In this document: piece by piece, positions 2,484 through 15,318 of the stretch
How positions within the stretch are numbered: the stretch's first letter is position 1
How the letters are laid out: each line of letters begins with the position of its first letter
Translations under genes and position numbers: made by a program
Notes under the pieces: model-generated
Told to the model about the DNA's origin: nothing
Database searches by the model: none
Seen by the model: the letters and a program-made list of their open reading frames with translations, nothing else
IMG/VR virus record: IMGVR_UViG_3300035704_000001
Span: 86,823 to 150,822 of that record
Strand: one strand, 5' to 3'
Source: a virus
DNA: 64,000 bases

Positions 2484-3137
2484 GTGAGCGCGGTCGACAA
2501 GCTGCTGGCCCTGACCGGTAACGGGCCCGAGGTCCCGGACCCGGACACCGAGCTGCTGCGCGCCGCGCAGCAGCAGGCCCGGGAGCTGGAGGCGCTGGTC
2601 TGCCTGGCCTGGGACGACGATGACGACAAGGACGGCGGCGGAGGCGGGGATCATTCCGGGCATTCCACCTACAAGGCCCTGATCAAGAAGAAGATGGACC
2701 CGAAGCGGGCCGCGTCGATGTGCGCCCGGTCGGACAAGAACGTCAAGGCCTCCCAGCTGGCCCGCTCCCTCGTGCTCATGCTGTCCGGCGAGCCCGGCCG
2801 GGACCTGGTGCTCACCCTGACCGCCGGGGAGCACGAGCGCCGCGCGGCCGCGCAGCACGAGGTGACCCAGGCTGAGGAGGCGGCCGCCCTGGCGGCCCAG
2901 CTGCCCGGGATCACCGTCTCTCCTGCCGGGCTGGAAGAGGTCGCTGAGCTGGCCGCCAAGGCGATGGGCGACGGCGGCATCATCATGAACCACGGCCCGT
3001 TTACCGGCGAGCACGCGCACGGGCACTTCCAGTCGAACGTGCATGCCCATCCGCACAAGCACTTCGGCGATAACCGCCATGACGGCGGACCTCAGCACCG
3101 GCCGGGCAGTCAGCCCGGCGGCCGGGCCGGCTGGTAG
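2484..3137 (+). CDS. hypothetical protein with His-rich C-terminus
   Basis: GGAGG SD before GTG; HAHGHFQSNVHAHPHKH tract. Confidence 0.65.
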   Translation: MSAVDKLLALTGNGPEVPDPDTELLRAAQQQARELEALVCLAWDDDDDKDGGGGGDHSGHSTYKALIKKKMDPKRAASMCARSDKNVKASQLARSLVLMLSGEPGRDLVLTLTAGEHERRAAAQHEVTQAEEAAALAAQLPGITVSPAGLEEVAELAAKAMGDGGIIMNHGPFTGEHAHGHFQSNVHAHPHKHFGDNRHDGGPQHRPGSQPGGRAGW

Positions 3138-3145
3138 GAGACACC

Positions 3146-3313
3146 ATGTTCGCTGTTGTCGGTCTCATCTGCGGCATTGTCGCCGCGATCCTGAACCTGA
3201 CCAATCAGCATGTCGGGATCATCACCTGGCTGCTGATCATCGCCGCCATCTGCTTCGGCATCGAGCTGGTCTGGTCCTGGCACCGCGGCGGTTACTACCA
3301 CCGCGCCCCGTGA
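3146..3313 (+). CDS. small two-TM membrane protein (55 aa, not in ORF track)
   Basis: GGAG SD, MFAVVGLICGIVAAILNL...ITWLLIIAAICFGIELVWSW; TGA overlaps terL GTG. Confidence 0.6.
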   Translation: MFAVVGLICGIVAAILNLTNQHVGIITWLLIIAAICFGIELVWSWHRGGYYHRAP

Positions 3314-5265
3314 CCGGGGCAGGCGCCGCGGCCGCGCGGCTCCTGCTGGCAGGTGACTCGGCCGCCTCCTACGGCGACCGCCAGTCCGGCTCGATCGCGT
3401 TCACCGAGGAGCCGGTGCCGCTGACGGTGTTCGTCCAGGACAAGGGCTACCTGGCCAACCCGCCGCTGTCCCCGGTGCAGTACGAGGCGGTGCTGCATGC
3501 CGAGCGGGTCTATTACCCGTCCGCCTACGAGGTGCTGGCGCAGTCCGCGGACCGCAAGATCCGCGAGTACTGGAAGCAGACCGTCCGGATGGTCAACTTC
3601 CTGGAGCTGGAGTGGGGCAAGGGCGGCGGCAAGGACCACACCTGCCGGATGATCGCCATGCGGGTCTGCTACCTGCTGCTGTGCCTGCGCAGCCCGCAGG
3701 ACTACTACGGCATGCCCGCCCAGGACAGCATCCACTGCCTGAACGTGGCCAGTTCCTCCAAGCAGGCCCAGCGCGCGTTCTTCGCCCCGATGCGGCGCGC
3801 GGTGACCCGCCCCGGGAGCTGGTTCCAGCGCCGGTCGGGGGTGGACATCCTGGACTCGGCCGAGCGGCGCAGCGGGCCGGCCAAGACCACCGCCCTGCTG
3901 GACACCATCCGGTTCGAGCACAACATCGAGGCGGTCTCCGGGCACTCCGACGCGGACAGCCAGGAGGGGCTGAACCTCATGCTCGGCATCGCGGATGAGG
4001 TGGACGCCTTCAAGAGCCGGGCCGAGCTGGCCAAGTCCACCGGCGCCAAGCAGCGCGAGTCATCCAGCTCGGCCGAGTCCATCCTGGAGATGCTGCGCAC
4101 ATCGGCGTCTACCCGGTTTCCCGAGGTGTATAAAAACGTCCACATCAGCTATCCCAGGTACCTCGGGTCAGTGATCCAGCAGCAGGTGGCGAGGGGTAAG
4201 GCTGATATCGCCGCCAAGGGCGACGCCTCGCACTACTACGTGTCCGGCCCGCTGTGCACCTGGGAGGCCAACCCGCGGGTGCCCGGCAAGCAGGCCTTCG
4301 CCGAGGACTACGAGCGGGACCCGGCCATGGCCGAGGCCAAGTACGAGTGCAAGCCCCGCCGGGCCATCAACCCCTACTTCAGCAACGAGCAGGCGCTGCG
4401 GGACTGCACGTACGAGGCCAGCCAGTATCCCGTCGAGGTGGACTACACCCGCGAGGGCGCCACCTGGAAGCCGGTCTATGTCTTCAGCGGCGACTTCTTC
4501 CCGGTCAAGGGCGCGCTGTACGCGATGCACGCCGACCTGTCGGTGACCGGTGACCGGGCCGGCGTCACCCTGGCGCACGTCAAGCGGTGGCAGGACCACA
4601 CGGTGACCGCCACCGAGGAGGACGGCATCGAGGTGCAGCTGACCGAGCGGCGGCCGGTGGTCAAGATCGACTTCACCATCAGCTACTCGGCCAGCGTGGG
4701 CGCGGTGCCGCCGCGGGAGATCCAGATTAGATGGGCCCGGATGCTGGCGCTGGAGCTGCGCCGGCTGGGCTTCCCCATCATGCGGTTCACGTTCGACCAG
4801 TACCAGAGCAAGGATTCCATGCAGATCCTGGAGTCTCACGGCATCGAGACCGACCGGTTCTCCACCGACGTGAGCGAGGAAGGCTGGCGGACCCTGCGGG
4901 ACGTGATGTACGAGGGCCGGCTGGAGATGCCGGCCCGCGAGCTGCTGATCAACGAGCTGCTGGGGCTCTCGCGGCTGCCGAACGGCAAGATCGATCATCT
5001 GGGCGACTCCTCCAAGGACGAGGCCGACAGCCTAGCCGGGGCGGTAGCCGGCGCGCTGGAACTCGGGGGAGCAGAGGACCCGTCCGGCAAGCGCGCGTAC
5101 TTCGGCACGCACAAGTTCTGGGAGCCGGACGGCATAGCCGAGGAGCTGAGCCCGCTCGGGATGCTGCCGGCCCCGGCTATGCTCGGCCCCGGCGAGCCGC
5201 TGCCCGAGTACCGCGGCGGCATGGAGTACAGCGGCGAGCTGAACTACTGGGGGCCCGAGATATGA
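3310..5265 (+). CDS. terL: terminase large subunit
   Basis: Walker A-like WGKGGGKD, Walker B GIADEVD, nuclease-domain acidic motifs MHADLS, FTFDQYQS and SKDEADSLAGA; GTG 3310 in frame with ORF 3043..5265. Confidence 0.9.
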   Translation: MTGAGAAAARLLLAGDSAASYGDRQSGSIAFTEEPVPLTVFVQDKGYLANPPLSPVQYEAVLHAERVYYPSAYEVLAQSADRKIREYWKQTVRMVNFLELEWGKGGGKDHTCRMIAMRVCYLLLCLRSPQDYYGMPAQDSIHCLNVASSSKQAQRAFFAPMRRAVTRPGSWFQRRSGVDILDSAERRSGPAKTTALLDTIRFEHNIEAVSGHSDADSQEGLNLMLGIADEVDAFKSRAELAKSTGAKQRESSSSAESILEMLRTSASTRFPEVYKNVHISYPRYLGSVIQQQVARGKADIAAKGDASHYYVSGPLCTWEANPRVPGKQAFAEDYERDPAMAEAKYECKPRRAINPYFSNEQALRDCTYEASQYPVEVDYTREGATWKPVYVFSGDFFPVKGALYAMHADLSVTGDRAGVTLAHVKRWQDHTVTATEEDGIEVQLTERRPVVKIDFTISYSASVGAVPPREIQIRWARMLALELRRLGFPIMRFTFDQYQSKDSMQILESHGIETDRFSTDVSEEGWRTLRDVMYEGRLEMPARELLINELLGLSRLPNGKIDHLGDSSKDEADSLAGAVAGALELGGAEDPSGKRAYFGTHKFWEPDGIAEELSPLGMLPAPAMLGPGEPLPEYRGGMEYSGELNYWGPEI

Positions 5266-5756: not shown

Positions 5757-5788
5757 TACTTGACACCGGTCAGGTGCCCGCGTAGAGT
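5757..5788 (+). promoter_or_regulatory. sigma70-type promoter of tRNA array with overlapping palindromic operator
   Basis: TTGACA(5760)-17 nt-TAGAGT(5783); TACTTGAC-accg-GTCAGGTG. Confidence 0.7.
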
Positions 5789-6029: not shown

Positions 6030-6102
6030 GGGAGCGTGGCACAGCGGCAACTGCAGTGGCCTCCAAAACCACCAACCGAGGGTTCGAGTCCTTCCGCTCC
6101 TG
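6030..6102 (+). tRNA. tRNA-Trp(CCA)
   Basis: cloverleaf, loop CTCCAAA, TTCGAGT T-loop. Confidence 0.85.
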
Positions 6103-6259
6103 CGACCATCGTCAACGCGAGAGCCGCGACGGTGCCTGTCACCTGGCAGTACTTGAGAACTCCACAGCGTGAGCATCGAGCAGGCTAGCCAGCCTGCTCA
6201 GTTAGACGTGCTGGGCTGGCCGCAACCGGGACTCCCCGGGGAAGCCAGCCCAGCGCACT

Positions 6260-6332
6260 GGGGCTATAGCGCAGCTGGTAGCGCACCTCCATGGCATGGA
6301 GGGGGTCAGGAGTTCGAATCTCCTTAGCTCCA
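6260..6332 (+). tRNA. tRNA-Ala(GGC)
   Basis: GGGGCTA acceptor, loop ATGGCAT. Confidence 0.95.
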
Positions 6333-6434
6333 CTGGTGCTGCTGACATGTGTAGAGGGCCGTGACGGGTACCTCAGCGGCGGTTATGCCGAAGGCCGGGT
6401 GTCTCCGGCGGCAAATAGGCGGCGGCACCAGCCT

Positions 6435-6507
6435 GGGGCTGAAGCACAACTGGTTGTGCATCGGTGTCGCAAGCCGACGGGTGCGGGTTCGAGTCCCGCC
6501 AGCTCCA
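6435..6507 (+). tRNA. tRNA-Ala(CGC)
   Basis: GGGGCTG acceptor, loop GTCGCAA. Confidence 0.88.
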
Positions 6508-6510
6508 CTA

Positions 6511-6635
6511 GCCGGGAGATGCGGGTTCGAATCCCGTCAGCTATGCAGCCGTCGCCTTCAGCAGTGCACCTGGAGGCGGCCCGCTCGGCCGAGCGGGCAG
6601 GCAGCCAGCTGTAGCTCAACTGGCAGAGCCCCGGC
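6511..6635 (+). ncRNA. circularly permuted tRNA-like RNA (YrlA/Y-RNA-like topology)
   Basis: T arm GCGGG-TTCGAAT-CCCGT (6521-6537) precedes D arm TA-GCTC-AACTGGCA-GAGC (6612-6629); CAGCT/AGCTG acceptor-like stem closed by insert; ends pair GCCGG/CCGGC. Confidence 0.6.
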
Positions 6636-6641
6636 GTTAAA

Positions 6642-6716
6642 CGGGAAGTGGCGCAGCTTGGCTAGCGCGCCGCGTTCGGGACGCGGAGGTCGTGGGTTCG
6701 AATCCCGCCTTCCCGA
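6642..6716 (+). tRNA. tRNA-Pro(CGG)
   Basis: CGGGAAG acceptor, loop TTCGGGA. Confidence 0.95.
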
Positions 6717-6760
6717 CTAGGCCGGCAAGCGGGGCCGAGAGGCCAGCGCACGGCCACCAA

Positions 6761-6836
6761 CGGGCTGTGGCGCAGTTTGGCTCAGCGCACCTGTCTGGGG
6801 GACAGGGGGTCATCGGTTCGAATCCGGTCAGCCCGA
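6761..6836 (+). tRNA. tRNA-Pro(GGG)
   Basis: CGGGCTG acceptor, loop CTGGGGG. Confidence 0.92.
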
Positions 6837-6954
6837 CTAGGCAGGTCCGACGCAGGCGCCGCCTTTAAGCGGTTCGCGGCGGAAGCGAGGACGCTCGTCT
6901 CGTGTGGTACCGGGGTACCGGGTTCCCCGGACGACATGGGTGGCCTGCCTTTCA

Positions 6955-7026
6955 CGGGATGTGGTGTAAGGGTCAGCGTGCCTGCTTTGGAAGCAGGAGG
7001 ATGAGGTTCGAGTCCTTGCATCCCGA
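6955..7026 (+). tRNA. tRNA-Pro(TGG)
   Basis: CGGGATG acceptor, loop TTTGGAA. Confidence 0.9.
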
Positions 7027-7092
7027 CTGAGGGGAGGAACCCCCGGCACGGGTAGCGCGGAGGGGTCCGCGTCCGGCCGCCTCCCCCGACAT

Positions 7093-7166
7093 GGAGCTGT
7101 AGCTCAGTTGGTAAGAGCGCCCGTCTGAAAAGCGGGAGGTCGGTGTGTCGAGTACACCTGGCTCCA
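7093..7166 (+). tRNA. tRNA-Phe(GAA)
   Basis: loop CTGAAAA; atypical T-loop GTCGAGT. Confidence 0.82.
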
Positions 7167-7351
7167 CGATGGACTGACGTCTGGCGGCAGCCGAAAGGCC
7201 GAGCAACCGGGTGACTGATCTGGAGGCCTCCAGTACCCAGTAAGCCGCGCAGCTGCAGCTGCGCGGTATCAGCCCACCCCGGGACATCCACTCCGGGGCG
7301 CGAGGACGACCGGCGGACCCAGGCGTTACTGGGGGCTTGAGCCGGGACCCT

Positions 7352-7424
7352 GCGGACGAGTCCCAACTGGCCGGGTACCAGCCCTCCAAGCTGGTTGTTG
7401 CGGGTTCGACTCCCGTCGTCCGCT
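7352..7424 (+). tRNA. tRNA-Gly(TCC), C33 variant
   Basis: GCGGACG acceptor, loop CCTCCAA, U73. Confidence 0.8.
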
Positions 7425-7543
7425 CTTAGGATGTGAAGAGGTACGGGCCCGGATGCTACTCCGGGTTGCGTGCAAGCGGCTGTCGGGTCGCGGCCGGGCG
7501 GGGTGGTGAGGCCGACATCTTGCCACCCCGCGCCGGTTTTCAT

Positions 7544-7615
7544 GCTCCGTTAGCTCAGTGGCAGAGCGGTGGGCTCTTAACCCGCGCGTCCGGGGTCCGA
7601 TTCCCTGACGGAGCA
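7544..7615 (+). tRNA. tRNA-Lys(CTT)
   Basis: loop CTCTTAA. Confidence 0.88.
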
Positions 7616-7621
7616 CAGCAC

Positions 7622-7694
7622 GGGCGGGTAGGCCAGCGGGAGAGTCAGCCGCCCCAAAAGCGGTAGTGCGCGGGTTCGAATCCCGCCCCGCCCA
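7622..7694 (+). tRNA. tRNA-Leu(CAA), short variable loop, C33 variant
   Basis: loop CCCAAAA, canonical T arm, A73. Confidence 0.75.
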
Positions 7695-7792
7695 CGAACG
7701 GATGACACGGCCGTCCTGCGAATCCGTGTCCGGTCCCTCCCTGGGGAGGAACAAGGCCGTTACTCCGGGGAGAGCAAAGACCCCCGGCGCGA

Positions 7793-7864
7793 TGGGGTAT
7801 GGGGTAACCGGCAGCCCGGCGGACTCTGAATCCGTCAGTCTTGGTTCGAATCCAGGTACCTCAG
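7793..7864 (+). tRNA. tRNA-Gln(CTG)
   Basis: TGGGGTA acceptor, loop CTCTGAA. Confidence 0.93.
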
Positions 7865-8335
7865 CTAGCTGGCCGCCGGCCAGCTGGACACGTCGTTCAC
7901 GGCGGTGTGGATCGTGTCGCTCAGCGGGGTCGGCCAGGGCACCGTGGGCAGGATGTAGCCGCGGAGCCGGATGGCGCCGTAGGCCTCGATCAGCCAGCGC
8001 AGGTAGGGCAGCGCCTGGAACTGCATCAGCTGGATCATGTCCGGGCTGGTGTACGGGCCGCCGCCGTCACTGACAGGCGGGCTGGTGGCTTCCAGCTCGC
8101 TGTCGGACGATCCGGTCTCCCCGGTCGAGACGGGCGGGAAGCCCTCGAAGTGCTTCCCGCCGGCGTTGTCGGTGTAGGCGACGACCCAGATCACGGTGTC
8201 ACCGGAGCCGGCCAGGGAGGCCACCTCGACGGGGCTCTGGGCCATGTTGAACATGGCCGCGAAGTTGATCCCGTCACCGGTGTCCGAATTCATGAAGGTG
8301 TCGATCTCGGCGTCAGTCGGAGGGGCGGTAGCCAT
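7865..8335 (-). CDS. hypothetical acidic protein inserted antisense in tRNA array
   Basis: 156-aa ORF filling the gap between tRNA-Gln and tRNA-Thr. Confidence 0.6.
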   Translation of the reverse strand: MATAPPTDAEIDTFMNSDTGDGINFAAMFNMAQSPVEVASLAGSGDTVIWVVAYTDNAGGKHFEGFPPVSTGETGSSDSELEATSPPVSDGGGPYTSPDMIQLMQFQALPYLRWLIEAYGAIRLRGYILPTVPWPTPLSDTIHTAVNDVSSWPAAS

Positions 8336-8384
8336 GGCCCTACCCTGGCCGGCTTCCGCGCCGCGCGCAATTGCGCGAGGTCAC

Positions 8385-8457
8385 GCCGGGGTAGCTCAAA
8401 TGGCAGAGCAGGCGTCTCGTAAACGTCAGGTTGAGGGTTCGATCCCGTCCTCCGGCT
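8385..8457 (+). tRNA. tRNA-Thr(CGT)
   Basis: GCCGGGG acceptor, loop CTCGTAA. Confidence 0.92.
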
Positions 8458-8465
8458 CGATACAC

Positions 8466-8551
8466 GTCCGCGTGGCGGAATAGGCATACGCGCAGCCTTG
8501 AGGTGGCTGTGCTCCTAGCGGAGCGTGAGAGTTCAAGTCTCTCCGCGGACA
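8466..8551 (+). tRNA. tRNA-Leu(GAG)
   Basis: loop TTGAGGT, long variable arm. Confidence 0.93.
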
Positions 8552-8556
8552 CACGG

Positions 8557-8629
8557 TGGGGGTTAGCTCAATAGGCCGAGCAGCGGTCCTTGGTACCGCG
8601 GGATCGGGGTTCGAGTCCCTGGCCCCCAG
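8557..8629 (+). tRNA. tRNA-Gln(TTG), C33 variant
   Basis: TGGGGGT acceptor, loop CCTTGGT. Confidence 0.85.
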
Positions 8630-8875
8630 CAGAATCAATCGCGGGCTGCGTGTCAGGAATCGTCAGGCCGGCGACAGATAGCTAGTAGGACCTGCCCTTC
8701 GGACCGGCGTCCGCGTGTCTTCGGTAAGGACGCGCCGCCCGGATCGGCACCGGGGAAGGGCTCAAGAGGGGGCGGCGCGTTCCGGCCTTCTGCCTCGTGC
8801 GGACGAGACTGGTCTCTCCCCGTGCAGGTTGTCTCTGGTGGTGGTTAGGCCAGCACCGCCGGACAGGGGCGCAAT

Positions 8876-8949
8876 GCGGACGTGGCTCAGTCGGTTACGG
8901 CGCCACGTTGCCAACGTGGAGATCGCGAGTTCGAATCTCGCCGTCCGCA
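8876..8949 (+). tRNA. tRNA-Gly(GCC)
   Basis: GCGGACG acceptor, loop TTGCCAA. Confidence 0.92.
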
Positions 8950-8951
8950 CT

Positions 8952-9005
8952 CAGGGATGAAACAGCAGCGGGCTGTAAAGCCGGTTCGACTCCGGTGATC
9001 CCTGT
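8952..9005 (+). ncRNA. D-armless tRNA-like element
   Basis: CAGGGAT/ATCCCTG stem, ACAGC-agcgg-GCTGT hairpin, T arm GCCGG-TTCGACT-CCGGT. Confidence 0.45.
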
Positions 9006-9009
9006 TCGA

Positions 9010-9092
9010 GCGCTCGTGGCGAAACGGCATACGCGCACGGTTCAGGTCCGTGTGCCCGCGAGGGCGTAAGGGTTCAAATCCCTTCGAGCGCA
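9010..9092 (+). tRNA. tRNA-Leu(CAG)
   Basis: loop TTCAGGT, long variable arm. Confidence 0.93.
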
Positions 9093-9153
9093 CGACATCC
9101 TGGCCGCTTCGACGGCCAGGACGCGGGCCCTGGCTCTGGCCAGGGCCCAGCAC

Positions 9154-9240
9154 GGAGGGCTGGCTCAGCGGCTACAGCGGCGCCCTGCTAAGGCGCAGGG
9201 GCTCCGGCCCTCACGGGTTCGAGTCCCGTGCCCTCCTCCA
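9154..9240 (+). tRNA. tRNA-Ser(GCT)
   Basis: loop CTGCTAA, long variable arm, encoded CCA. Confidence 0.9.
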
Positions 9241-9241
9241 C

Positions 9242-9303
9242 GGGCTGTATGACACCGGCCGTGCCTGCCGGCAAAGGCGGGTTCGCCTCCCGTACGGTCC
9301 ACC
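9242..9303 (+). ncRNA. D-armless tRNA-Ala-like element
   Basis: GGGCTGT/ACGGTCC acceptor with G3-U70 and A73; CCGGC-cgTGCct-GCCGG arm; GCGGG-TTCGCCT-CCCGT T arm. Confidence 0.5.
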
Positions 9304-9305
9304 CT

Positions 9306-9392
9306 GGAGGGTTCGCCTAGTGGCCTATGGCGCACGCCTGGAAAGCGTGTTGGGTGGCGACACCCTCGCGGGTTCGACTCCCGCACCCTCCT
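9306..9392 (+). tRNA. tRNA-Ser(GGA)
   Basis: loop CTGGAAA, long variable arm. Confidence 0.93.
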
Positions 9393-9467
9393 CTGGTCTC
9401 GTTCGTGACTCCGTATTAGGGGTGTGTTACCGTCACGATACGGTCCGTCACGGAAAGGGAGTTCATC

Positions 9468-9593
9468 ATGCGTCGCAGGTTTATCGCCGGGATCATTCTC
9501 CTGGGTGCACTGCTCGGAGGAGCAGCCGCTACCGGAGGGGCTGCTTCCGCAGCCGCTCATTCAGCTCCCGGAACGGTCTATTACCACGGCTGA
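9468..9593 (+). CDS. 41-aa secreted peptide precursor (not in ORF track)
   Basis: GAAAGGGAG SD; MRRRFIAGIILLGALLGGAAATGGAASAAAHSAPGTVYYHG = signal peptide + short C-terminal peptide. Confidence 0.7.
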   Translation: MRRRFIAGIILLGALLGGAAATGGAASAAAHSAPGTVYYHG

Positions 9594-9604
9594 GCTGAAT
9601 TGAC

Positions 9605-9670
9605 CAGGCAGACCCGGGTGTCTTCGAGACGGGGTACCCCGTCAGGCGCACACCGGGTCTGCCTGCTTTC
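9605..9670 (+). terminator. strong hairpin downstream of peptide gene
   Basis: CAGGCAGACCCGG...CCGGGTCTGCCTG followed by ctttc. Confidence 0.5.
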
Positions 9671-9672
9671 CT

Positions 9673-9758
9673 GGGGGGTTCGCCTAGTGGCCTATGGCGC
9701 CGGTCCCGAAAACCGAAGGGGGAAACCCCCGTGGGTTCGAATCCCACACCCCCCTCCA
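9673..9758 (+). tRNA. tRNA-Ser(CGA), C33 variant
   Basis: loop CCCGAAA, variable arm, encoded CCA. Confidence 0.87.
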
Positions 9759-9759
9759 A

Positions 9760-9837
9760 GGGCAGGCAGCATCGACAGGTTCGAGCGCTCGTCTGATAAA
9801 CGAGAGGGTGGAGGTTCAAATCCTCCCCTGCCCACCA
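9760..9837 (+). tRNA. tRNA-Ile(GAT)
   Basis: loop CTGATAA, encoded CCA; irregular D arm. Confidence 0.85.
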
Positions 9838-9838
9838 C

Positions 9839-9913
9839 GGCGGTATAGCTCAGCTGGTCAGAGCGCCCCACTCATAATGGGAGAGGCCGCTGGTTCGAGT
9901 CCAGCTACCGCCA
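9839..9913 (+). tRNA. tRNA-Met(CAT), elongator type
   Basis: GGCGGTA acceptor, loop CTCATAA. Confidence 0.9.
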
Positions 9914-9917
9914 CTCC

Positions 9918-9992
9918 GGGCTGTTAACTCAGTGGCAGAGTCTTCGACTTTTAATCGAGTGGTCCGGGGTTCGATCCCCCGACAGCCCACCA
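9918..9992 (+). tRNA. tRNA-Lys(TTT)
   Basis: loop CTTTTAA, encoded CCA. Confidence 0.92.
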
Positions 9993-9993
9993 G

Positions 9994-10067
9994 GCGCCCG
10001 TAGCTCAGCCGGACAGAGCTGCTGCCTTCTAAGCAGCGGGCCGCGGGTTCGAATCCTGCCGGGCGCG
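9994..10067 (+). tRNA. tRNA-Arg(TCT)
   Basis: GCGCCCG acceptor, loop CTTCTAA. Confidence 0.95.
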
Positions 10068-10152
10068 CTAGCTGAGTGGTAATAATGGATGTGCCGGGCC
10101 TGGATGTGTGGGTTCCCTCCGGGGCTTCTCGCTTCCCGGGTCCGGTCTGTAT

Positions 10153-10227
10153 CGTCCCGTGGAGCAGCCAGGAGTGTTCGCCGCTCTCTCAAAGCGGAGG
10201 TCGAGGGTTCAAATCCCTTCGGGACGA
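10153..10227 (+). tRNA. tRNA-Glu(CTC)
   Basis: loop CTCTCAA. Confidence 0.9.
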
Positions 10228-10291
10228 CATCACGGGCTAGTTCCCGGCCAATGTGCCGGGGAGCCGAGGCCGGCGGTCCCACCGGCCATCA

Positions 10292-10365
10292 GGCCCCATG
10301 GAGCTAAAAGAGCAGGCCACCGCCCTTTCAAGGCGGGGGTGCGGGTTCGAGTCCCGCTGGGGCTG
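10292..10365 (+). tRNA. tRNA-Glu(TTC)
   Basis: GGCCCCA acceptor, loop CTTTCAA; irregular D arm. Confidence 0.82.
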
Positions 10366-10366
10366 C

Positions 10367-10442
10367 TGCGGAGGGGGTTCGGTCACCCGACTAGGCCTCA
10401 TAAGCCTGGGGACGCAGGTTCAAATCCTTGCCTCCGCTACCA
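10367..10442 (+). tRNA. tRNA-fMet-like (CAT)
   Basis: unpaired 1-72 position, loop CTCATAA, encoded CCA; degenerate D arm. Confidence 0.75.
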
Positions 10443-10443
10443 A

Positions 10444-10515
10444 TCCGGTATCCGTTAATCGGTAAACGAGCTGACCGTTAATCAGCCCCTCTTGGTTCGA
10501 GTCCAAGTACCGGAG
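10444..10515 (+). tRNA. tRNA-Asn(GTT), C33 variant
   Basis: TCCGGTA acceptor, loop CCGTTAA. Confidence 0.85.
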
Positions 10516-10529
10516 CGCAGGTAAATCAG

Positions 10530-10604
10530 GAGCCAGTGGAGCAGCTTGGAGTGCTCGTCTCCCCGTCAAGGAGAAGACCGCGGGTTCAAATCCCGTCTGG
10601 CCCG
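10530..10604 (+). tRNA. tRNA-Asp(GTC), C33 variant
   Basis: loop CCGTCAA, Asp-type D arm GGAGCAGCTTGGAGTGCTC. Confidence 0.87.
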
Positions 10605-10605
10605 C

Positions 10606-10798
10606 TCAGAACAGCCCGTGGCCGCCGGCCTTGGCCCGGCGCATCCGCTCGCGGCTCTCGTAGCTGCCGAGCTGGTTGAAGCCCCAGACCCGGCCCATGC
10701 GCATCCCGATGGTCAGCGCGATGACGGCAATGATGATCGCGCCGACCGGGCCGAACAGGGCCCAGGCGACGATGAGGAGGAGAACTCCGAGCAGCACG
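10606..10798 (-). CDS. small membrane protein inside tRNA array (start uncertain)
   Basis: VLLGVLLLIVAWALFGPVGAIIIAVIALTIG hydrophobic hairpin in ORF 10606..10890. Confidence 0.4.
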
Positions 10799-10833
10799 TC
10801 ATTGACGGTACATAACTGATAGCAGTTTGACCA

Positions 10834-10905
10834 GGGCGGGTGGCGCAGCGGGAGCGCGCTTCCCCGACAAGGAAGAGGCCGCCAGTTCAATCCTGGCCCC
10901 GCCCA
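10834..10905 (+). tRNA. tRNA-Val(GAC), C33 variant
   Basis: loop CCGACAA. Confidence 0.87.
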
Positions 10906-10951
10906 CGCTTGACACCAGCAGTAGTCAGTAGGTTACTGTTGGCGAGTTCAA

Positions 10952-11024
10952 GCGCTCCTAGCTCAGCGGATAGAGCGGCCGACTACGGATCGGCAGGTGC
11001 GGGGTTCGAGTCCCTGGGAGCGCG
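10952..11024 (+). tRNA. tRNA-Arg(ACG)
   Basis: loop CTACGGA. Confidence 0.93.
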
Positions 11025-11088
11025 CGAGACCCCGGTCCTGCAACGGCGCAAGCCGGCCGGCAGATCCGGCGCCGGGGTCCGTCTTTCA

Positions 11089-11128
11089 GGGCGCATAGCT
11101 CAGCAGGAGAGCGGCTGGTACAGTGCCA
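11089..11128 (+). pseudogene. 5' half of a tRNA (remnant) directly upstream of endonuclease gene
   Basis: GGGCGCA-TA-GCTC-AGCAGGA-GAGC acceptor 5' strand and D arm, no T arm follows. Confidence 0.55.
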
Positions 11129-11149
11129 ACAGGTCTGTATGCTGGGATA

Positions 11150-11560
11150 GTGAACGGTAATACGAATAGCAACAGCGTCGGTGCTCGAACCGAGGGCATG
11201 ATCATGGCGGCGTTGCTTCGTGCAGGTAAGACTGTCCTTACCCCGTTCGGGGTCCAGCGCTATGACCTGGTATTCGAGGATGAATCAGGATTCCACCGGG
11301 TTCAGTGCAAGACAGGCCGTCTAAAGGACGGGGCTATAGTGTTCGAGACCTGCAGCCGCCACAGTAGAACACTTCAGCGAACCTCATACCACGGGCACGC
11401 GGACTTCTTCGGCGTGTACTACCCGGGAGGGGATGCTTGTTACTTGATACCGATCGAATTGGTGGGTCAGACGCAGGGCAGTATCCGGATCGTGCAGACG
11501 AAGAACAGCCAGGCCAAAGGCGTCTTGAACGCCGAGCAATTTGTAATAATGTCCAGTTAG
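11150..11560 (+). CDS. PD-(D/E)XK homing-type endonuclease (I-Ssp6803I-like family)
   Basis: PFG..RYDLVFE...RVQCKTGR...DFFGVY...YLIP; lower GC than flanks; TATGCT -10 then GTG 11150. Confidence 0.85.
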   Translation: MNGNTNSNSVGARTEGMIMAALLRAGKTVLTPFGVQRYDLVFEDESGFHRVQCKTGRLKDGAIVFETCSRHSRTLQRTSYHGHADFFGVYYPGGDACYLIPIELVGQTQGSIRIVQTKNSQAKGVLNAEQFVIMSS

Positions 11561-11625
11561 CTCAGCGGGAGAGCGCTGCCCCCACACGGCAGGCGTCGGG
11601 AGTTCGACCCTCTCACTGGACACCA
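11551..11625 (+). tRNA. tRNA-Val(CAC), C33 variant
   Basis: loop CCCACAC, encoded CCA; overlaps endonuclease stop. Confidence 0.87.
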
Positions 11626-11626
11626 T

Positions 11627-11699
11627 GGTGGTTGTAGCTCAAGGTAGAGCCCGGGGTTGTGAGCCCCGGAGGTGCGGGTCGTACCCGTCAATCACCCCA
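11627..11699 (+). tRNA. tRNA-His(GTG)
   Basis: G-1, loop TTGTGAG, C73, encoded CCA; atypical T-loop. Confidence 0.85.
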
Positions 11700-11700
11700 A

Positions 11701-11781
11701 GGCGGAGTAACCCTAGAGGCAAGGGAGCGGCCTGTAAAGCCGTGGTCTTCGATACGGCAGGTTCGATTCCTGCGTCCGCCA
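11701..11781 (+). tRNA. tRNA-Tyr(GTA)
   Basis: loop CTGTAAA, variable arm. Confidence 0.88.
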
Positions 11782-11821
11782 CTGCACAGCGATCTACCGG
11801 AGTTCTTCCGGGGATCTACCA

Positions 11822-11893
11822 GCGCCCGTAGCTCAGGGGATAGAGCTGCGGCCTCCGGAGCCGTGAGCGGGAGTTCGAATCTCTCCGGGCGCG
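11822..11893 (+). tRNA. tRNA-Arg(CCG)
   Basis: GCGCCCG acceptor, loop CTCCGGA. Confidence 0.94.
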
Positions 11894-11904
11894 CGTACGA
11901 TAAT

Positions 11905-11979
11905 GGCGGTGTGGCCGAGTGGCCCAGGCGTGCGCCTGCAAAGCGCACTACACGAGTTCGATTCTCGTCTCCGCCTCCA
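11905..11979 (+). tRNA. tRNA-Cys(GCA)
   Basis: loop CTGCAAA, U73, encoded CCA. Confidence 0.93.
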
Positions 11980-12013
11980 ACCAAGAAGGGACTCCCCGAA
12001 GGGAGTCCCTTGA

Positions 12014-12086
12014 TGGCCCGTGGTCCAGCGGACACGGATAGCTGCCTCCTAAGCGGCGGACGCGGGTTCGAATCCCGCCGGGCCAG
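12014..12086 (+). tRNA. tRNA-Arg(CCT)
   Basis: loop CTCCTAA. Confidence 0.88.
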
Positions 12087-12111
12087 CCCAGGTGCTCACG
12101 CTGCGGCAGTA

Positions 12112-12471
12112 TCAGTTGCCCGGAACCGTGAAGACCTCATCCGCGGCCGCGCCCGGGTTGACGGTGACGCTGACCGGGGCCGGGTCGGAGATCGGCGTGG
12201 CGCCGTCCGGGCCGAGCAGCGGGGAGCCGTCGGAGGCGGTGGCGTGCACGCTCAGCTGCGCAGTGCCCTCGGCCACCTCGGTGAGCGGGAACTGCAGGGT
12301 GCCCACGCCGTTGGCGTCGGAGGCCGCGGTGGCGTCGCCGACGTTCAGGATGCTGGTGTCGCTGGACGAGGCTACCGCGGTCGCGCCGTCCGGCGGCGGA
12401 ACGGCGTCTCCGTGGTCGTCGGTGAATGACAGGACGGCTACCGCGTTGGCGGAGTCGACGGTCAGAGGCAT
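12112..12471 (-). CDS. hypothetical beta-rich (Ig-like) protein; may start at 12663
   Basis: AAGGGAG SD before ATG 12471; alternating V/T/S strands, ASSSDTSILNV. Confidence 0.55.
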   Translation of the reverse strand: MPLTVDSANAVAVLSFTDDHGDAVPPPDGATAVASSSDTSILNVGDATAASDANGVGTLQFPLTEVAEGTAQLSVHATASDGSPLLGPDGATPISDPAPVSVTVNPGAAADEVFTVPGN

Positions 12472-12872
12472 GAGGTCTCCCTTGATCTTGAGGTGCATGT
12501 GCGCCGGTGCCGTGGACCCGGTGAGAGCCGGGACCAGCTGCCTGGCATAATCGGCCAGCCTCTGGGGCGTCAGATCCCAGTGGCCGGTGTGGACGCGGGC
12601 CGCCGCGGCGAGCGCTGCGATCCGCATCTGGTCTCTGCGCTGCCTGTCCAGGCTGTCAGTCACCCGGGACAGCTTAGCCAGCTGGCCAGCTGGCCGGCAG
12701 CTGATTCGCTCACCTGGCCGCGGTTACTGGACGTACTGGTGGGGTTGCGCTACGCTGACCGTGCCAAGGGGATGCCGACGCATCTCTGGGGCGGCCGGTC
12801 CCGGGCTCGTTCATCGACAAGTCATCCGCATGAGGGCCGGCCGCCCCGGGCACGGGCTCCGATATCACCGGC

Positions 12873-13130
12873 ATGAAGCTGAGCGGCCGCTGGGACCAGG
12901 AGCTGGCGCAGTTCGGGAACGCCCCCGGGCTCAACCAGGGCGACGTCACCATCGAGCTGGCCATCGCGGTGGAGGGCAAGAACGCCTACACCGTGGACAG
13001 CGACGACGTGACTTTCGGGGCCGAGTCCGGCAACGTCGTCGGGCTGACCCTGCTGCTGGCGGACAAGCGCCACCTGTTCATCCCCTGGTCCAACGTGACC
13101 GGCATCGTGGACGCCATCGAGCATCCGTAG
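12873..13130 (+). CDS. hypothetical protein
   Basis: 85-aa ORF preceded by CGAT-N9 motif. Confidence 0.6.
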   Translation: MKLSGRWDQELAQFGNAPGLNQGDVTIELAIAVEGKNAYTVDSDDVTFGAESGNVVGLTLLLADKRHLFIPWSNVTGIVDAIEHP

Positions 13131-13138
13131 TACCGGGT

Positions 13139-13660
13139 GTGAGATCAGCCTCCCACCGCTTCAGCAACGAGCTGCGGTACCGCAGGGACCTCGACGACGG
13201 CCAGGCCCAGCTCACGCCGTCCTACGTGCTCGACGCGGTGCGCGCCGCGCTGGGCGGGACGATCGGGCTGGACCCCTGCACCGAGCCGGGTAACCCGGCC
13301 GGGGCGGAGCGGTTCTACTGCCCGCCGGCTGACGGGGCCTGCGAGCCCTGGGACGCGGACTCGATCTTCGTCAACCCGCCGTACAGCCGGGCTCGCGAGC
13401 CGTGGGTGCGCCGGTGCATGCAGGCCGGGCTGGCCGGCAGCAAGGTGGTGCTGCTCATCCCGGCGGCCACCGACACCCGCATCTTCCAGGATGCCCTGTC
13501 CACCGCGAGCGAGGTGCTGTTCCTGCGCGGCCGGGTCAAGTTCGGCATCCCGCGCGCCAACGGCCGCCAGGCCGCGGCCAGCCACCCGTCTGCGCTGATC
13601 GGCTGGGGCGCTGACCTGGAGCTGGCCCGGCCGCTGGGCTACCTGCTCAAGACGAGGTAG
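13139..13660 (+). CDS. phage DNA N6-adenine methyltransferase (Dam-like)
   Basis: GLDPC motif I, IFVNPPYS motif IV, LLIPAATDT, FLRGRVKF. Confidence 0.85.
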   Translation: MRSASHRFSNELRYRRDLDDGQAQLTPSYVLDAVRAALGGTIGLDPCTEPGNPAGAERFYCPPADGACEPWDADSIFVNPPYSRAREPWVRRCMQAGLAGSKVVLLIPAATDTRIFQDALSTASEVLFLRGRVKFGIPRANGRQAAASHPSALIGWGADLELARPLGYLLKTR

Positions 13661-13680
13661 CGCAGGACGATTCTCCCGGG

Positions 13681-15318
13681 GTGACCACACCCGGAGGCGG
13701 GCAGGGCGTCCCGTACACCTCCAGCGTCCAGCCGCCGGGCGGCATGGGCGTGACGAGCCAGGGCTTCGGGCAGGAGGGCTATCTCCTGGCGCAGGACCAG
13801 GAGCTGCCCAAGCCGCCGCCGGAGGCGCTGGACTTCGCGGTCGGCGTCCCGTACTTCCTCCCGTTCAGCGTCCCGTACCGGGACAGCTGGGAGGTGTTCC
13901 GCGATGACCCGATCTCGGTCCGCCAGCTGGTCACCATGCGCCGCCGCGATGGCCAGGCCCGGGCGCTGTACCGGCTGCTGACCAAGCCGCTGCTGGCCGC
14001 GATGGCCAACGCCGACGTGGTGCCGGCCGACGGCGTGGAAGGCGGGCTGGAGGAGGCCAGGTTCTGCAAGGAGCTGTTGTTCGCGCCCAAGCAGATGGGC
14101 GGGATGACCCACTCGTTCAGCCGGTTCCTCAAGCAGATGCTGCTGGCATTGTTCAATGGCTTCTCCGCGTGGGAAATGGTCTACCACGTCCCGACCAAGG
14201 GGCCGAATAAGGGCAAGATCACCCTGCGGAAGATGGACTGGCGCCCGGCCGAGACGCTGACATTCCTGCTGGACGGCCAGGGGGAATTCAACGGCTTCCG
14301 GCAAAGGACCTTCTTTCAGGGGAGGACCATTGATGTCAAGATCCCCCGGGAGACCGCGCTCTATTACGCGCACGAGGAGGCCGAGCGGCCTTTCTATGGC
14401 GTGTCCATGTTCGAGTCGGCCTTCTATCACTACGACAAGAAGGAGAAGCTGTACTACATTGCCCACCTGGCGGCGCAGCGGGCTGCCTGCGGCCTGCGGG
14501 TGGGCACCATGGTGCCGAACGCCCCGGCCGAGGACAAGAACAACTTCGTCAAGGCGCTGAGCCAGCTGGGCCTCGCCCAGTGGATCGCGCTGCCCACCGC
14601 GGACTGGACCGTCGAGACGCTGAACGAGTCGGCGAGCCGCTTCGACTTCCTGGGCCTGATTAACCATCACAATTCGCAGATGTCCAAGTCGGTGCTCGCG
14701 CAGTGGTTCGATGACTCTCAGGGCGGCGGCGGCGGCGACTCCACTCTCGTTGATTTCGGGAAGCAGGATGACGTCACGTTCTTCCTGATGCTGGAAGGCA
14801 TCCTGGAGGAAATGGCCGAGATCATCAACACGCATGTCTTCCCGCGATTCGTGGACTGGAATTTCGGCAGCGAGAAGTACCCCGAATTCAAGTGGGGGCC
14901 GCTCACCGAAGAGGCCAAGGCGGCTATCCAGGACACGTTCGACAAGCTGGCCGCCGCCGGGCAGCAGGCCAACGTCACGCCGGAGTTCATGCTGGAGCTG
15001 GAGGAGCGGCTGGCGCAGGACTTCGGGTTCGCCATCGACTACGACAAGATCAAGGCCCAGCGGGAGAAGCAGCAGCGGCTCATGCAGCAGCAGATGGCCG
15101 CGCAGACCCAGGCGATGCAGCAGCAGCCGCAGCCCGGCGCCGCGGGAGCCGGCGCAGCCGCCGGGCAGCCGCCGGCGCCTCCGCCGCCCGCTCCCTTCCC
15201 GCCCGCCGGGTTCGGCCCGCCGGGCAGTGACGGCCCGCCCGCCAGGCCCGCCGGGGGTCCCGGGCTGGGCGGCGGCCGCGGAGCCGGCCCGCCCGGGCTG
15301 CAGGGGCGCGGATCGTGA
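13681..15318 (+). CDS. portal protein (Mu gp29/DUF935-like)
   Basis: ALFNGFSAWEMVY, PFYGVSMFESAFY, RFVDWNFG..YPEFKW; Gln/Pro-rich tail; position after terL before MuF. Confidence 0.8.
   Translation: MTTPGGGQGVPYTSSVQPPGGMGVTSQGFGQEGYLLAQDQELPKPPPEALDFAVGVPYFLPFSVPYRDSWEVFRDDPISVRQLVTMRRRDGQARALYRLLTKPLLAAMANADVVPADGVEGGLEEARFCKELLFAPKQMGGMTHSFSRFLKQMLLALFNGFSAWEMVYHVPTKGPNKGKITLRKMDWRPAETLTFLLDGQGEFNGFRQRTFFQGRTIDVKIPRETALYYAHEEAERPFYGVSMFESAFYHYDKKEKLYYIAHLAAQRAACGLRVGTMVPNAPAEDKNNFVKALSQLGLAQWIALPTADWTVETLNESASRFDFLGLINHHNSQMSKSVLAQWFDDSQGGGGGDSTLVDFGKQDDVTFFLMLEGILEEMAEIINTHVFPRFVDWNFGSEKYPEFKWGPLTEEAKAAIQDTFDKLAAAGQQANVTPEFMLELEERLAQDFGFAIDYDKIKAQREKQQRLMQQQMAAQTQAMQQQPQPGAAGAGAAAGQPPAPPPPAPFPPAGFGPPGSDGPPARPAGGPGLGGGRGAGPPGLQGRGS

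Follow-up and report, generated by a model that had tools for sequence, protein, structure and literature searches.

What does a 41-codon open reading frame (ORF) encode when it lies, with its own ribosome-binding site and a hairpin behind it, in a spacer between two phage tRNA genes? The initial annotation took this ORF for a secreted signal of the Phr/AimP type and described a strong Shine-Dalgarno (SD) sequence, a product with an MRRR start, a hydrophobic core, AxA motifs and the tail HSAPGTVYYHG, and a strong hairpin. All of these elements are present. The reading that we favor, at a probability of about 60% for the whole, is that the locus is a moron-type cassette whose gene would encode an exported propeptide.

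A small gene in a tRNA-array spacer

The window analyzed here makes up the terminal 64 kb of an IMG/VR viral contig of 150,822 bp, with a CheckV completeness of 100%. The contig derives from a large soil actinophage and has a GC content of ~70%. Its tRNA array comprises 36 genes, every one on the plus strand, at positions 6030-12088 (ARAGORN and Rfam). The large terminase gene (TerL, 3043-5265) lies on the 5' side of the array, the genes of a Dam methylase and a Mu-like portal (12587-15318) lie on its 3' side, and a promoter-like site, TTGACA-17-TAGAGT, precedes it at 5760-5788. The ORF and its cassette occupy a 279-nt spacer, which is bounded upstream by tRNA-Ser(GGA) (9306-9393, plus strand; ARAGORN; Rfam tRNA score 51.8 bits) and downstream by tRNA-Ser(CGA) (9673-9758, plus strand; ARAGORN; Rfam score 47.4 bits).

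In 12 sister viral contigs (TerL 70-78% identical), the tRNA order is the same and the spacers at this place range from 1 to 870 nt; a homologous peptide ORF is absent from all 12 of these syntenic arrays. Mobile inserts cluster in array spacers and include homing-endonuclease-type genes. A PD-(D/E)XK_5 ORF lies in a spacer of the window array (11123-11560, plus strand; Pfam E 4e-28, GC3 0.65), and a spacer of a sister array holds a 193-aa ORF with a LAGLIDADG-like motif (L005:11943-12524). Like the small ORFs and homing-endonuclease genes of phage tRNA clusters, the peptide gene occupies a variable array spacer. Unlike those endonuclease genes, it encodes a signal-peptide-like product rather than a nuclease and has relatives outside arrays.

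The array and its surroundings show several further peculiarities. A gene-like 156-aa ORF (7865-8335, minus strand; GC3 0.93) lies between tRNA-Gln and tRNA-Thr and has no Pfam or PHROG match; a called gene of equal length is found on the soil contig L015 (1644-2114, minus strand). A small hydrophobic ORF (10606-10890, minus strand; GC3 0.85) lies in the tRNA-Asp/tRNA-Val spacer, and L015 carries a 63-aa minus-strand gene (4522-4713) at the syntenic place. This ORF may be a second hidden micro-gene of the array. Just past the array, a 183-aa gene (12112-12663, minus strand) occupies the place that in sister phages holds genes for secreted proteins of 311 and 314 aa. Two anticodons in the sister arrays are unusual, namely TCA in a tRNA labeled SeC that replaces the second tRNA-Met (L007:16431-16509; ARAGORN), and ATG in a tRNA-His called by ARAGORN (L006:15750-15823).

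The gene, its leader and its hairpin

The 41-codon ORF occupies 9468-9593 on the plus strand and translates to MRRRFIAGIILLGALLGGAAATGGAASAAAHSAPGTVYYHG. The product consists of the n-region MRRR, the h-region FIAGIILLGALLGG, an Ala/Ser/Gly c-region with AxA motifs and the tail (HS)APGTVYYHG. It is encoded in a single copy, since the family HMM described below matches this ORF only in the phage genome (E 3e-15). Searches with the single sequence gave zero matches by tblastn against the phage collection, zero candidates in a word index and 0 matches in a degenerate DNA scan of viral contigs for HSAPGTVYYHG. Blastn of the spacer against phages returned the flanking tRNAs only, megablast of the entire tRNA array returned nothing, and look-alikes of the peptide in the ESM atlas (scores ≤0.88) formed no family. 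A raw DNA-pattern scan of viral contigs for the block AGASVTASAP was discarded, its three hits being chance matches within unrelated long ORFs. Peptide alignments searched against viral, metagenome and genome collections gave pattern matches, none of which survived a tblastn filter that may miss peptides of such low complexity. Homologs were found by an exhaustive HMMER search, which gave two proteins of 41 and 43 aa, and then by profile searches, which gave ~25 more. The short-ORF HMM search that had been proposed as a check of the initial annotation is thereby borne out, with about 30 homologs (P0001-P0031) of 39-48 aa that share start and stop positions.

Three copies lie in tRNA arrays. 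The copy on L015, which is 4.9 kb long, is located between the same two tRNAs as in the window; tRNA-Ser(GGA) is 100% identical and the leader ~95% identical between the two, the coding body and the hairpin have diverged, and the last nine codons show 100% DNA identity. In L019, whose tRNA array is related, the gene lies in the preceding spacer. Further copies, on L016 to L018 and L021, have no tRNA context. Both the window-type allele and the L015-type allele, the latter called from the differences that L015 shows at 9399, 9400, 9403 and 9417, occur in independent soil metagenomes. L016-type contigs match no phages or plasmids, the genes adjoining these copies have no Pfam or PHROG match and no homolog in this phage, and extension of the L021 junction gave 0 matches.

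The GC3 of the ORF is 0.52, versus 0.91 ± 0.05 in the long genes of the phage, and its geometric-mean codon preference of 0.17 is under the 5th percentile of real-gene windows. The gene is thus poorly adapted and could be decaying. In the comparison of copies, GC3 is lowest in the window (0.54) and reaches 0.70 in L015, 0.80 in L019 and 0.88 in L016. The Nei-Gojobori (NG86) dN/dS is 0.13-0.30 in 6/6 pairs of the YYHG subfamily, at dS values of 0.9-1.6 that are near-saturated, and 0.13-0.28 at a dS of about 1 for the three array copies alone. Since homologs share the start and stop and dN/dS is this low, the ORF is more than a chance frame. In L019 and L016, the tail codons are changed synonymously and the peptide is unchanged, which indicates that selection constrains the peptide rather than the RNA. 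By these comparisons among copies, the ORF is shown to be a real gene under purifying selection, and we conclude that it is in all likelihood translated.

The leader contains a -35-like hexamer, GTGACT (9405-9410), and an extended -10-like block, TGTTACCGT (9425-9433; TGn plus TAnnnT), both on the plus strand and both predicted to act in a promoter. A GTCAC half-site (9447-9451, plus strand), a candidate operator or 5'-UTR element, lies immediately 5' of the SD AAGGGAG (9455-9461, plus strand), which reads 6 nt upstream of the ATG at 9468 and is conserved in homologs. The initial annotation had pointed to CGTGAC, which overlaps the -35-like hexamer, and to two copies of CCGTCACG upstream of the ORF as a possible regulator site; these motifs are found at 9404-9409, 9430-9437 and 9445-9452. 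As a repeated motif across the window, CCGTCACG is at chance level (6 found versus 5.4 expected). The octamer includes GTGAC/GTCAC half-sites, whose enrichment is given below. The extended -10-like TGTTACC(G/T)T is invariant in 4/4 aligned leaders, including that of L016 in its non-tRNA context, and GTGAC[TA] stands 17 nt upstream of the -10-like block in three of the four (window, L015 and L016). GTCACNGAAA(A)GGRAGG is unchanged across the window, L015, L019 and L016, and the block GTCACNGAAAGGRAGG, SD included, is invariant in these four leaders. In L024-L040, GTGACA or TTGTCA followed after 17-18 nt by TAnnnT holds a fixed -35-like place. Within 110 nt upstream of the start codon in nine independent contexts, GTGAC/GTCAC half-sites are ~6-fold enriched (21 versus 3.2 expected; Poisson P 4e-11), and 0/5000 resamples reach the observed count. 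The suspected regulator site thus becomes a conserved cis-element that, from its placement, appears to serve at least partly as a promoter; an operator could lie in the half-site that adjoins the SD on its 5' side. The leader does not form a significantly stable RNA fold (z -1.06).

A long GC-rich hairpin followed by CUUUCC lies past the stop codon (9605-9665, plus strand). Its folding energy is -45.8 kcal/mol (z -5.7), and 0/200 shuffles fold equally well. The hairpin is present in all three array copies (-39.8 in L015 and -31.2 in L019), with compensatory pairs, and is a candidate terminator and/or 3'-end stabilizer. Since the next tRNA starts 7 nt beyond it, RNase P cleavage at that tRNA would leave an mRNA that ends in the hairpin.

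The succession of an ORF and a terminator-like hairpin within a tRNA operon also raises the idea of a leader-peptide attenuator, in which translation of the Val-Tyr-Tyr-His codons, 12 nt before the hairpin, would set the read-through into downstream tRNAs, including tRNA-Val, tRNA-His and tRNA-Tyr. Genes for tRNA-His and tRNA-Tyr do lie downstream (11628-11782), and the identity of the last nine codons between the window and L015 also speaks for it. We nevertheless consider attenuation extremely improbable, since a consensus fold of three sequences contains no conserved antiterminator pairing, the tail codons of L019 and L016 differ synonymously, and conservation spans the whole 41 aa, well beyond the regulatory codons. 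In addition, most family members are located outside tRNA arrays, and some directly precede another gene with no hairpin between.

The hairpin has a further property. Its internal loops, TTCGA (9623-9627) and AGGCG (9644-9648), are asymmetric, and both orientations exist in natural populations: in another soil population (run X5), both loops are swapped for their exact reverse complements, giving 'flip' and 'flop' forms. The L015 hairpin (3396-3455) likewise fits better when the window hairpin is reverse-complemented than in forward orientation, a pattern that suggests inversion between perfect arms.

Phage morons are autonomous promoter-gene-terminator inserts in phage genomes, a concept that goes back to Hendrix and Juhala. 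With its leader, SD, 41-codon gene and hairpin, the segment 9405-9665 would form a self-contained cassette of this type within the tRNA-array spacer. Like morons, it holds a single small accessory gene with a promoter-like leader and a hairpin past the stop codon, and it is marked by an atypical composition and a patchy presence among otherwise syntenic relatives. We call it moron-like because of this layout, composition and distribution. Unlike morons, which lie between structural genes, it is embedded in a tRNA array, and its promoter and terminator activities are predicted ones.

The peptide family and the likely fate of its product

The about 30 members constitute a previously undescribed family of mini-proteins; their source is high-GC mobile elements from soil, and several of these elements resemble temperate phages. 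The pre-region follows the pattern MRRRI.AAII...LLG.GG..AASAGASVTASAP. In the alignment, it can be divided into an MRR[RK] start, the core I.AAIIATFALLG.GG and the small-residue block AASAGASVTASAP, which is nearly invariant, with indels among the members of the YYHG subfamily. After an invariant Pro comes a tail of 6-9 residues. Neither the peptide nor the family profile matched a Pfam or PDB sequence, the PDB yielding signal-peptide-like noise only.

The tails of 28 members comprise 23 distinct sequences, all variants of the motif x-[TS]-aromatic-aromatic-[HWYR]-G and enriched in Gly, Tyr, His, Thr and Trp. The mean majority share is 0.73 in the pre-region and 0.55 in the more variable tail. 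Since pN/pS is similar in the two parts (0.61 in the tail versus 0.65 in the pre-region), the tail has no excess of non-synonymous change and thus no sign of positive selection. GTVYYHG is identical in three diverged copies, so that the suggestion of a meaningful C-terminal tail holds, both for this subfamily and for the motif common to the family. In P0020, the tail is duplicated; propeptide genes reportedly often contain intragenic duplications in their coding sequences (PMC10075063).

The product is small and joins a conserved leader to a variable core, with a tail rich in His, Tyr and Trp, as would also be expected of a precursor of the RiPP or bacteriocin type, or of a His/Tyr-rich peptide that binds metals, released by the infected cell against competitors. 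This possibility is highly improbable. The leader is of the Sec type rather than one for RiPP recognition, and neither a modification enzyme nor an immunity protein or dedicated exporter was seen to be encoded next to any family member. The usual peptide modifications need Cys or Ser/Thr residues, and the core contains no Cys and little Ser/Thr.

In the exported-propeptide reading, the gene encodes a pre-peptide that starts with a Sec-type signal of the actinobacterial kind, in which MRRR would be followed by a 12-14-residue hydrophobic core ending in GG and by an Ala/Ser/Gly stretch with AxA sites. Cleavage by signal peptidase would release an 8-13-residue C-terminal peptide ending in PGTVYYHG into the extracellular space. 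The signal-peptide-like order of n-, h- and c-regions that the initial annotation had recognized is reinforced by its conservation across the family. The layout is compatible with that of the Sec-exported signaling propeptides summarized in PMC10075063, and it would equally fit a small signal-anchored membrane protein.

Small membrane regulators of the MgrB type and superinfection-exclusion peptides act as membrane-displayed tails. The 41-aa product could similarly stay uncleaved, with MRRR in the cytoplasm, residues ~5-27 across the membrane and the YYHG tail outside, where it would bind a protein of the host envelope, for instance a sensor kinase, transporter or phage receptor. F5-A30 forms a run of 26 uncharged residues (about 30 in the main family), the entire hydrophobic part is under purifying selection, and an anchored peptide of this kind would need no receptor gene in the phage, in line with the orphan state of the gene described below. 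On the other hand, only ~12 residues are strongly hydrophobic; the GG and the Ala/Ser/Gly stretch behind them, with its AxA repeats and indels, are typical of a cleavable c-region rather than of a helix anchor. The near-invariant SAGASVTASAP block also resembles a processing site. The tblastn look-alikes of the peptide in sister phages are only the N-terminal signal peptides of the 311- and 314-aa secreted proteins encoded just past the tRNA arrays (L007:18043-18978 and L010:19448-20392); these full-size proteins share the same type of N-terminus and continue into an AHA|APG-type site of Sec signal peptides. We therefore regard the membrane anchor as a serious alternative that is nonetheless unlikely.

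Regulators near some family members and possible roles in this phage

Outside the arrays, members of the family occur on larger elements. L024 (56.5 kb) and L025 (49 kb) have GC contents of 68-71% and carry genes for MerR/HTH_17 excisionase-like, cI-like HTH_3, Tad2-like, HNH, PhdYeFM and replication-initiator proteins, a content by which they resemble the early regions of temperate phages or integrative elements. On three temperate-phage-like metagenomic elements (L025, L029/L030 and L032/L033), 1-4 tiny genes come after the peptide gene on the same strand, and behind these lies the gene of an XRE-HTH protein of 413 aa (L025), 398 aa (L029) or 441 aa (L032). The regulator lies downstream at a distance of about 0.6-1 kb (~630-930 bp) in L025, L029 and L032. 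The tiny genes encode 'LFWPS...' or short DUF397-like proteins, often together with a full DUF397 gene. A conserved 41-53-aa protein that starts with (M/V)LFWPS.RE directly follows the peptide gene at L024:10135-10296, L025:10147-10296 and L032:1694-1819, and L029 and L021 have a short DUF397-like protein (MHV..DGTVL) in the same place; both types may be co-factors of the peptide locus.

The three XRE-HTH regulators are mutually homologous and match phrog_5823 over their full length. Their C-terminal part folds as a TPR solenoid with PlcR:PapR as the top Foldseek match; for the L025 regulator, spAimR is merely one among many TPR structural matches. The inspection of neighborhoods for HTH-TPR receptors, proposed with the initial annotation, thus gave such regulators near the peptide gene in three other elements (L025, L029 and L032) and none in this phage. 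The link between peptide and regulator occurs in 3 of about 8 non-array contexts, and the regulator is absent from five other family contexts. Distant regulator homologs adjoin the integrase in cultured temperate Streptomyces phages, e.g. phiHau3 and Andris, with no family peptide beside them, and the family peptide is equally missing beside full-length homologs that reside on plasmids of Streptomyces, Nocardia and Amycolatopsis. The five contexts without a regulator and the phage and plasmid homologs without a peptide weaken the link, and the association is not obligatory.

A related arrangement is known from the host side. XRE-DUF397 pairs are known from Streptomyces development and antibiotic regulation (PMC10294661, PMC6262351, PMC10364602). 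Like these WhiJ/XRE-DUF397 (BldB-like) pairs, L025 and L032 carry DUF397 and XRE-HTH genes, here placed after the peptide gene. Their order, DUF397 then XRE, is the reverse of the XRE-then-DUF397 order given for chromosomal pairs in the abstracts of PMC6262351 and PMC10364602. No peptide partner of the chromosomal pairs appeared in the abstracts or in a term search of PMC10294661.

We assessed the RRNPP-like inference with the five-criterion signature of RRNPP_detector (PMC10075063), which describes a propeptide of 10-100 aa, a receptor of 250-500 aa and direct neighborhood of the two genes at -60 to 400 bp (PMC10075063). The signature further describes a SignalP-positive Sec propeptide that is matured to a C-terminal oligopeptide and a receptor with peptide-binding TPRs (PMC10075063). 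The inference stands in part: in some elements the family agrees in propeptide size, receptor length and TPRs, it disagrees in the spacing of the two genes, and this phage disagrees in the receptor. The propeptide measures 41 aa here and 39-48 aa family-wide. A receptor of 250-500 aa with TPRs is not found on the same element in this phage, and the spacing lies outside the -60 to 400 bp range throughout, as this phage has no receptor and the other elements place it ~630-930 bp away.

The Sec-exported RRNPP propeptides are PapR (PlcR), NprX (NprR), Phr (Rap) and AimP (arbitrium, in SPbeta-like Bacillus phages). As in these propeptides, the precursor of the family is ~40 aa long, its basic N-terminus leads into a hydrophobic core and small-residue cleavage motifs, and the family-specific part is the last 6-9 residues, Pro included. 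The resemblance extends to variable tails of 'pherotype' style on a conserved leader, with one member carrying a duplicated tail, and to the same-strand position of some homologs near a 398-441-aa HTH plus TPR regulator whose best Foldseek match is PlcR:PapR. In contrast to RRNPP systems, the host phylum is Actinomycetota and not Bacillota, and there is no sequence similarity to RRNPP propeptides or receptors, the RNPP_C and TPR_12 HMMs remaining silent. An RRNPP-like reading at the family level is attractive but unproven. We found no published description of peptide signaling in actinophages.

In this phage, the gene is an orphan member of the family. No regulator homolog was found (tblastn best E 0.067), the tiny partner genes are also unmatched, and the TPR_12, RNPP_C, HTH_3 and HTH_31 HMMs have no match anywhere in the 150.8-kb genome; the absence of a TPR/RRNPP receptor, first noted for the window, thus extends to the whole genome by HMM and tblastn searches. 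DUF397 also gave no match in the phage genome, which is a weak answer since the DUF397 control matched nowhere as well. The nearest TerL proteins are those of Microbacterium phage Magritte (44.5%) and of large Streptomyces phages of 131-136 kb (31%), and these nearest cultured relatives are, we assume, lytic. Neither a tyrosine integrase (Phage_integrase, PF00589) nor a large serine recombinase (PF07508) was found in the whole 150.8-kb genome, and the phage is probably virulent. Since it has neither integrase type, there is no visible lysis/lysogeny decision for the peptide to regulate. The phage thus presents no lysogeny module of a temperate phage, and the peptide has no sequence homology to AimP or AimR in the phage collection, Pfam or PDB. 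With neither regulator nor integrase, the arbitrium-like lysis/lysogeny switch that the initial annotation had inferred is not supported in this phage.

An orphan gene in such a place might instead be a decaying or neutral hitch-hiker, that is, a cassette from a temperate element that landed in a hypervariable tRNA spacer and lost its function here. The lowest GC3 of the four copies, the absence of the gene from the 12 sister contigs, the missing partner genes and the nature of array spacers as dumping grounds for mobile DNA, witness the PD-(D/E)XK and LAGLIDADG-like ORFs, are in line with this view. However, the cassette is intact in its reading frame, start, stop, SD, leader and hairpin, and the dN/dS of 0.13-0.28 among array copies at a dS of about 1 argues that the gene was kept through a long divergence within arrays. 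The occurrence of the L015-type and window-type alleles in independent soil metagenomes also speaks against loss of function, and we hold the hitch-hiker explanation to be very unlikely.

For the exported propeptide, a role in signaling or cross-talk is the least certain step, and we put it forward tentatively, as a possibility that is more doubtful than probable. Since this phage has no cognate regulator, the receptor of a signal peptide would have to come from the host, from a resident prophage or plasmid, or be an unrelated phage protein. A bolder version is that the family represents the first gene-encoded, Sec-exported peptide signals of actinomycete mobile elements, paired in temperate elements with an XRE-HTH/TPR receptor that is RRNPP-like and arose outside Bacillota, and that the orphan copy serves here as a 'jammer' or 'eavesdropping bait'. 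The secreted YYHG-type peptide would then manipulate receptors of prophages, plasmids or the host, e.g. WhiJ-like XRE-TPR developmental regulators. We consider this version speculative and clearly unlikely as a whole.

What began as the observation of a lone ORF is confirmed and, by comparison with its homologs, raised to a micro-gene that is conserved together with its promoter-like leader and its hairpin. Gene-encoded peptide signaling, as in RRNPP systems and arbitrium, is regarded as a specialty of Bacillota. Actinomycetota typically signal by small molecules (PMC10075063). A family that combines a signal peptide with a short tail, and that in part lies ahead of HTH-TPR regulators, would make peptide communication among actinomycete phages testable with synthetic 7-13-mers. 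The copy studied here would be an orphan signal gene in a virulent phage, placed in a tRNA array that gene callers and annotators overlook. Even if the product proves to be an envelope protein or a hitch-hiker, the spacers of tRNA arrays appear to conceal real, selected micro-genes with what are probably their own promoters.
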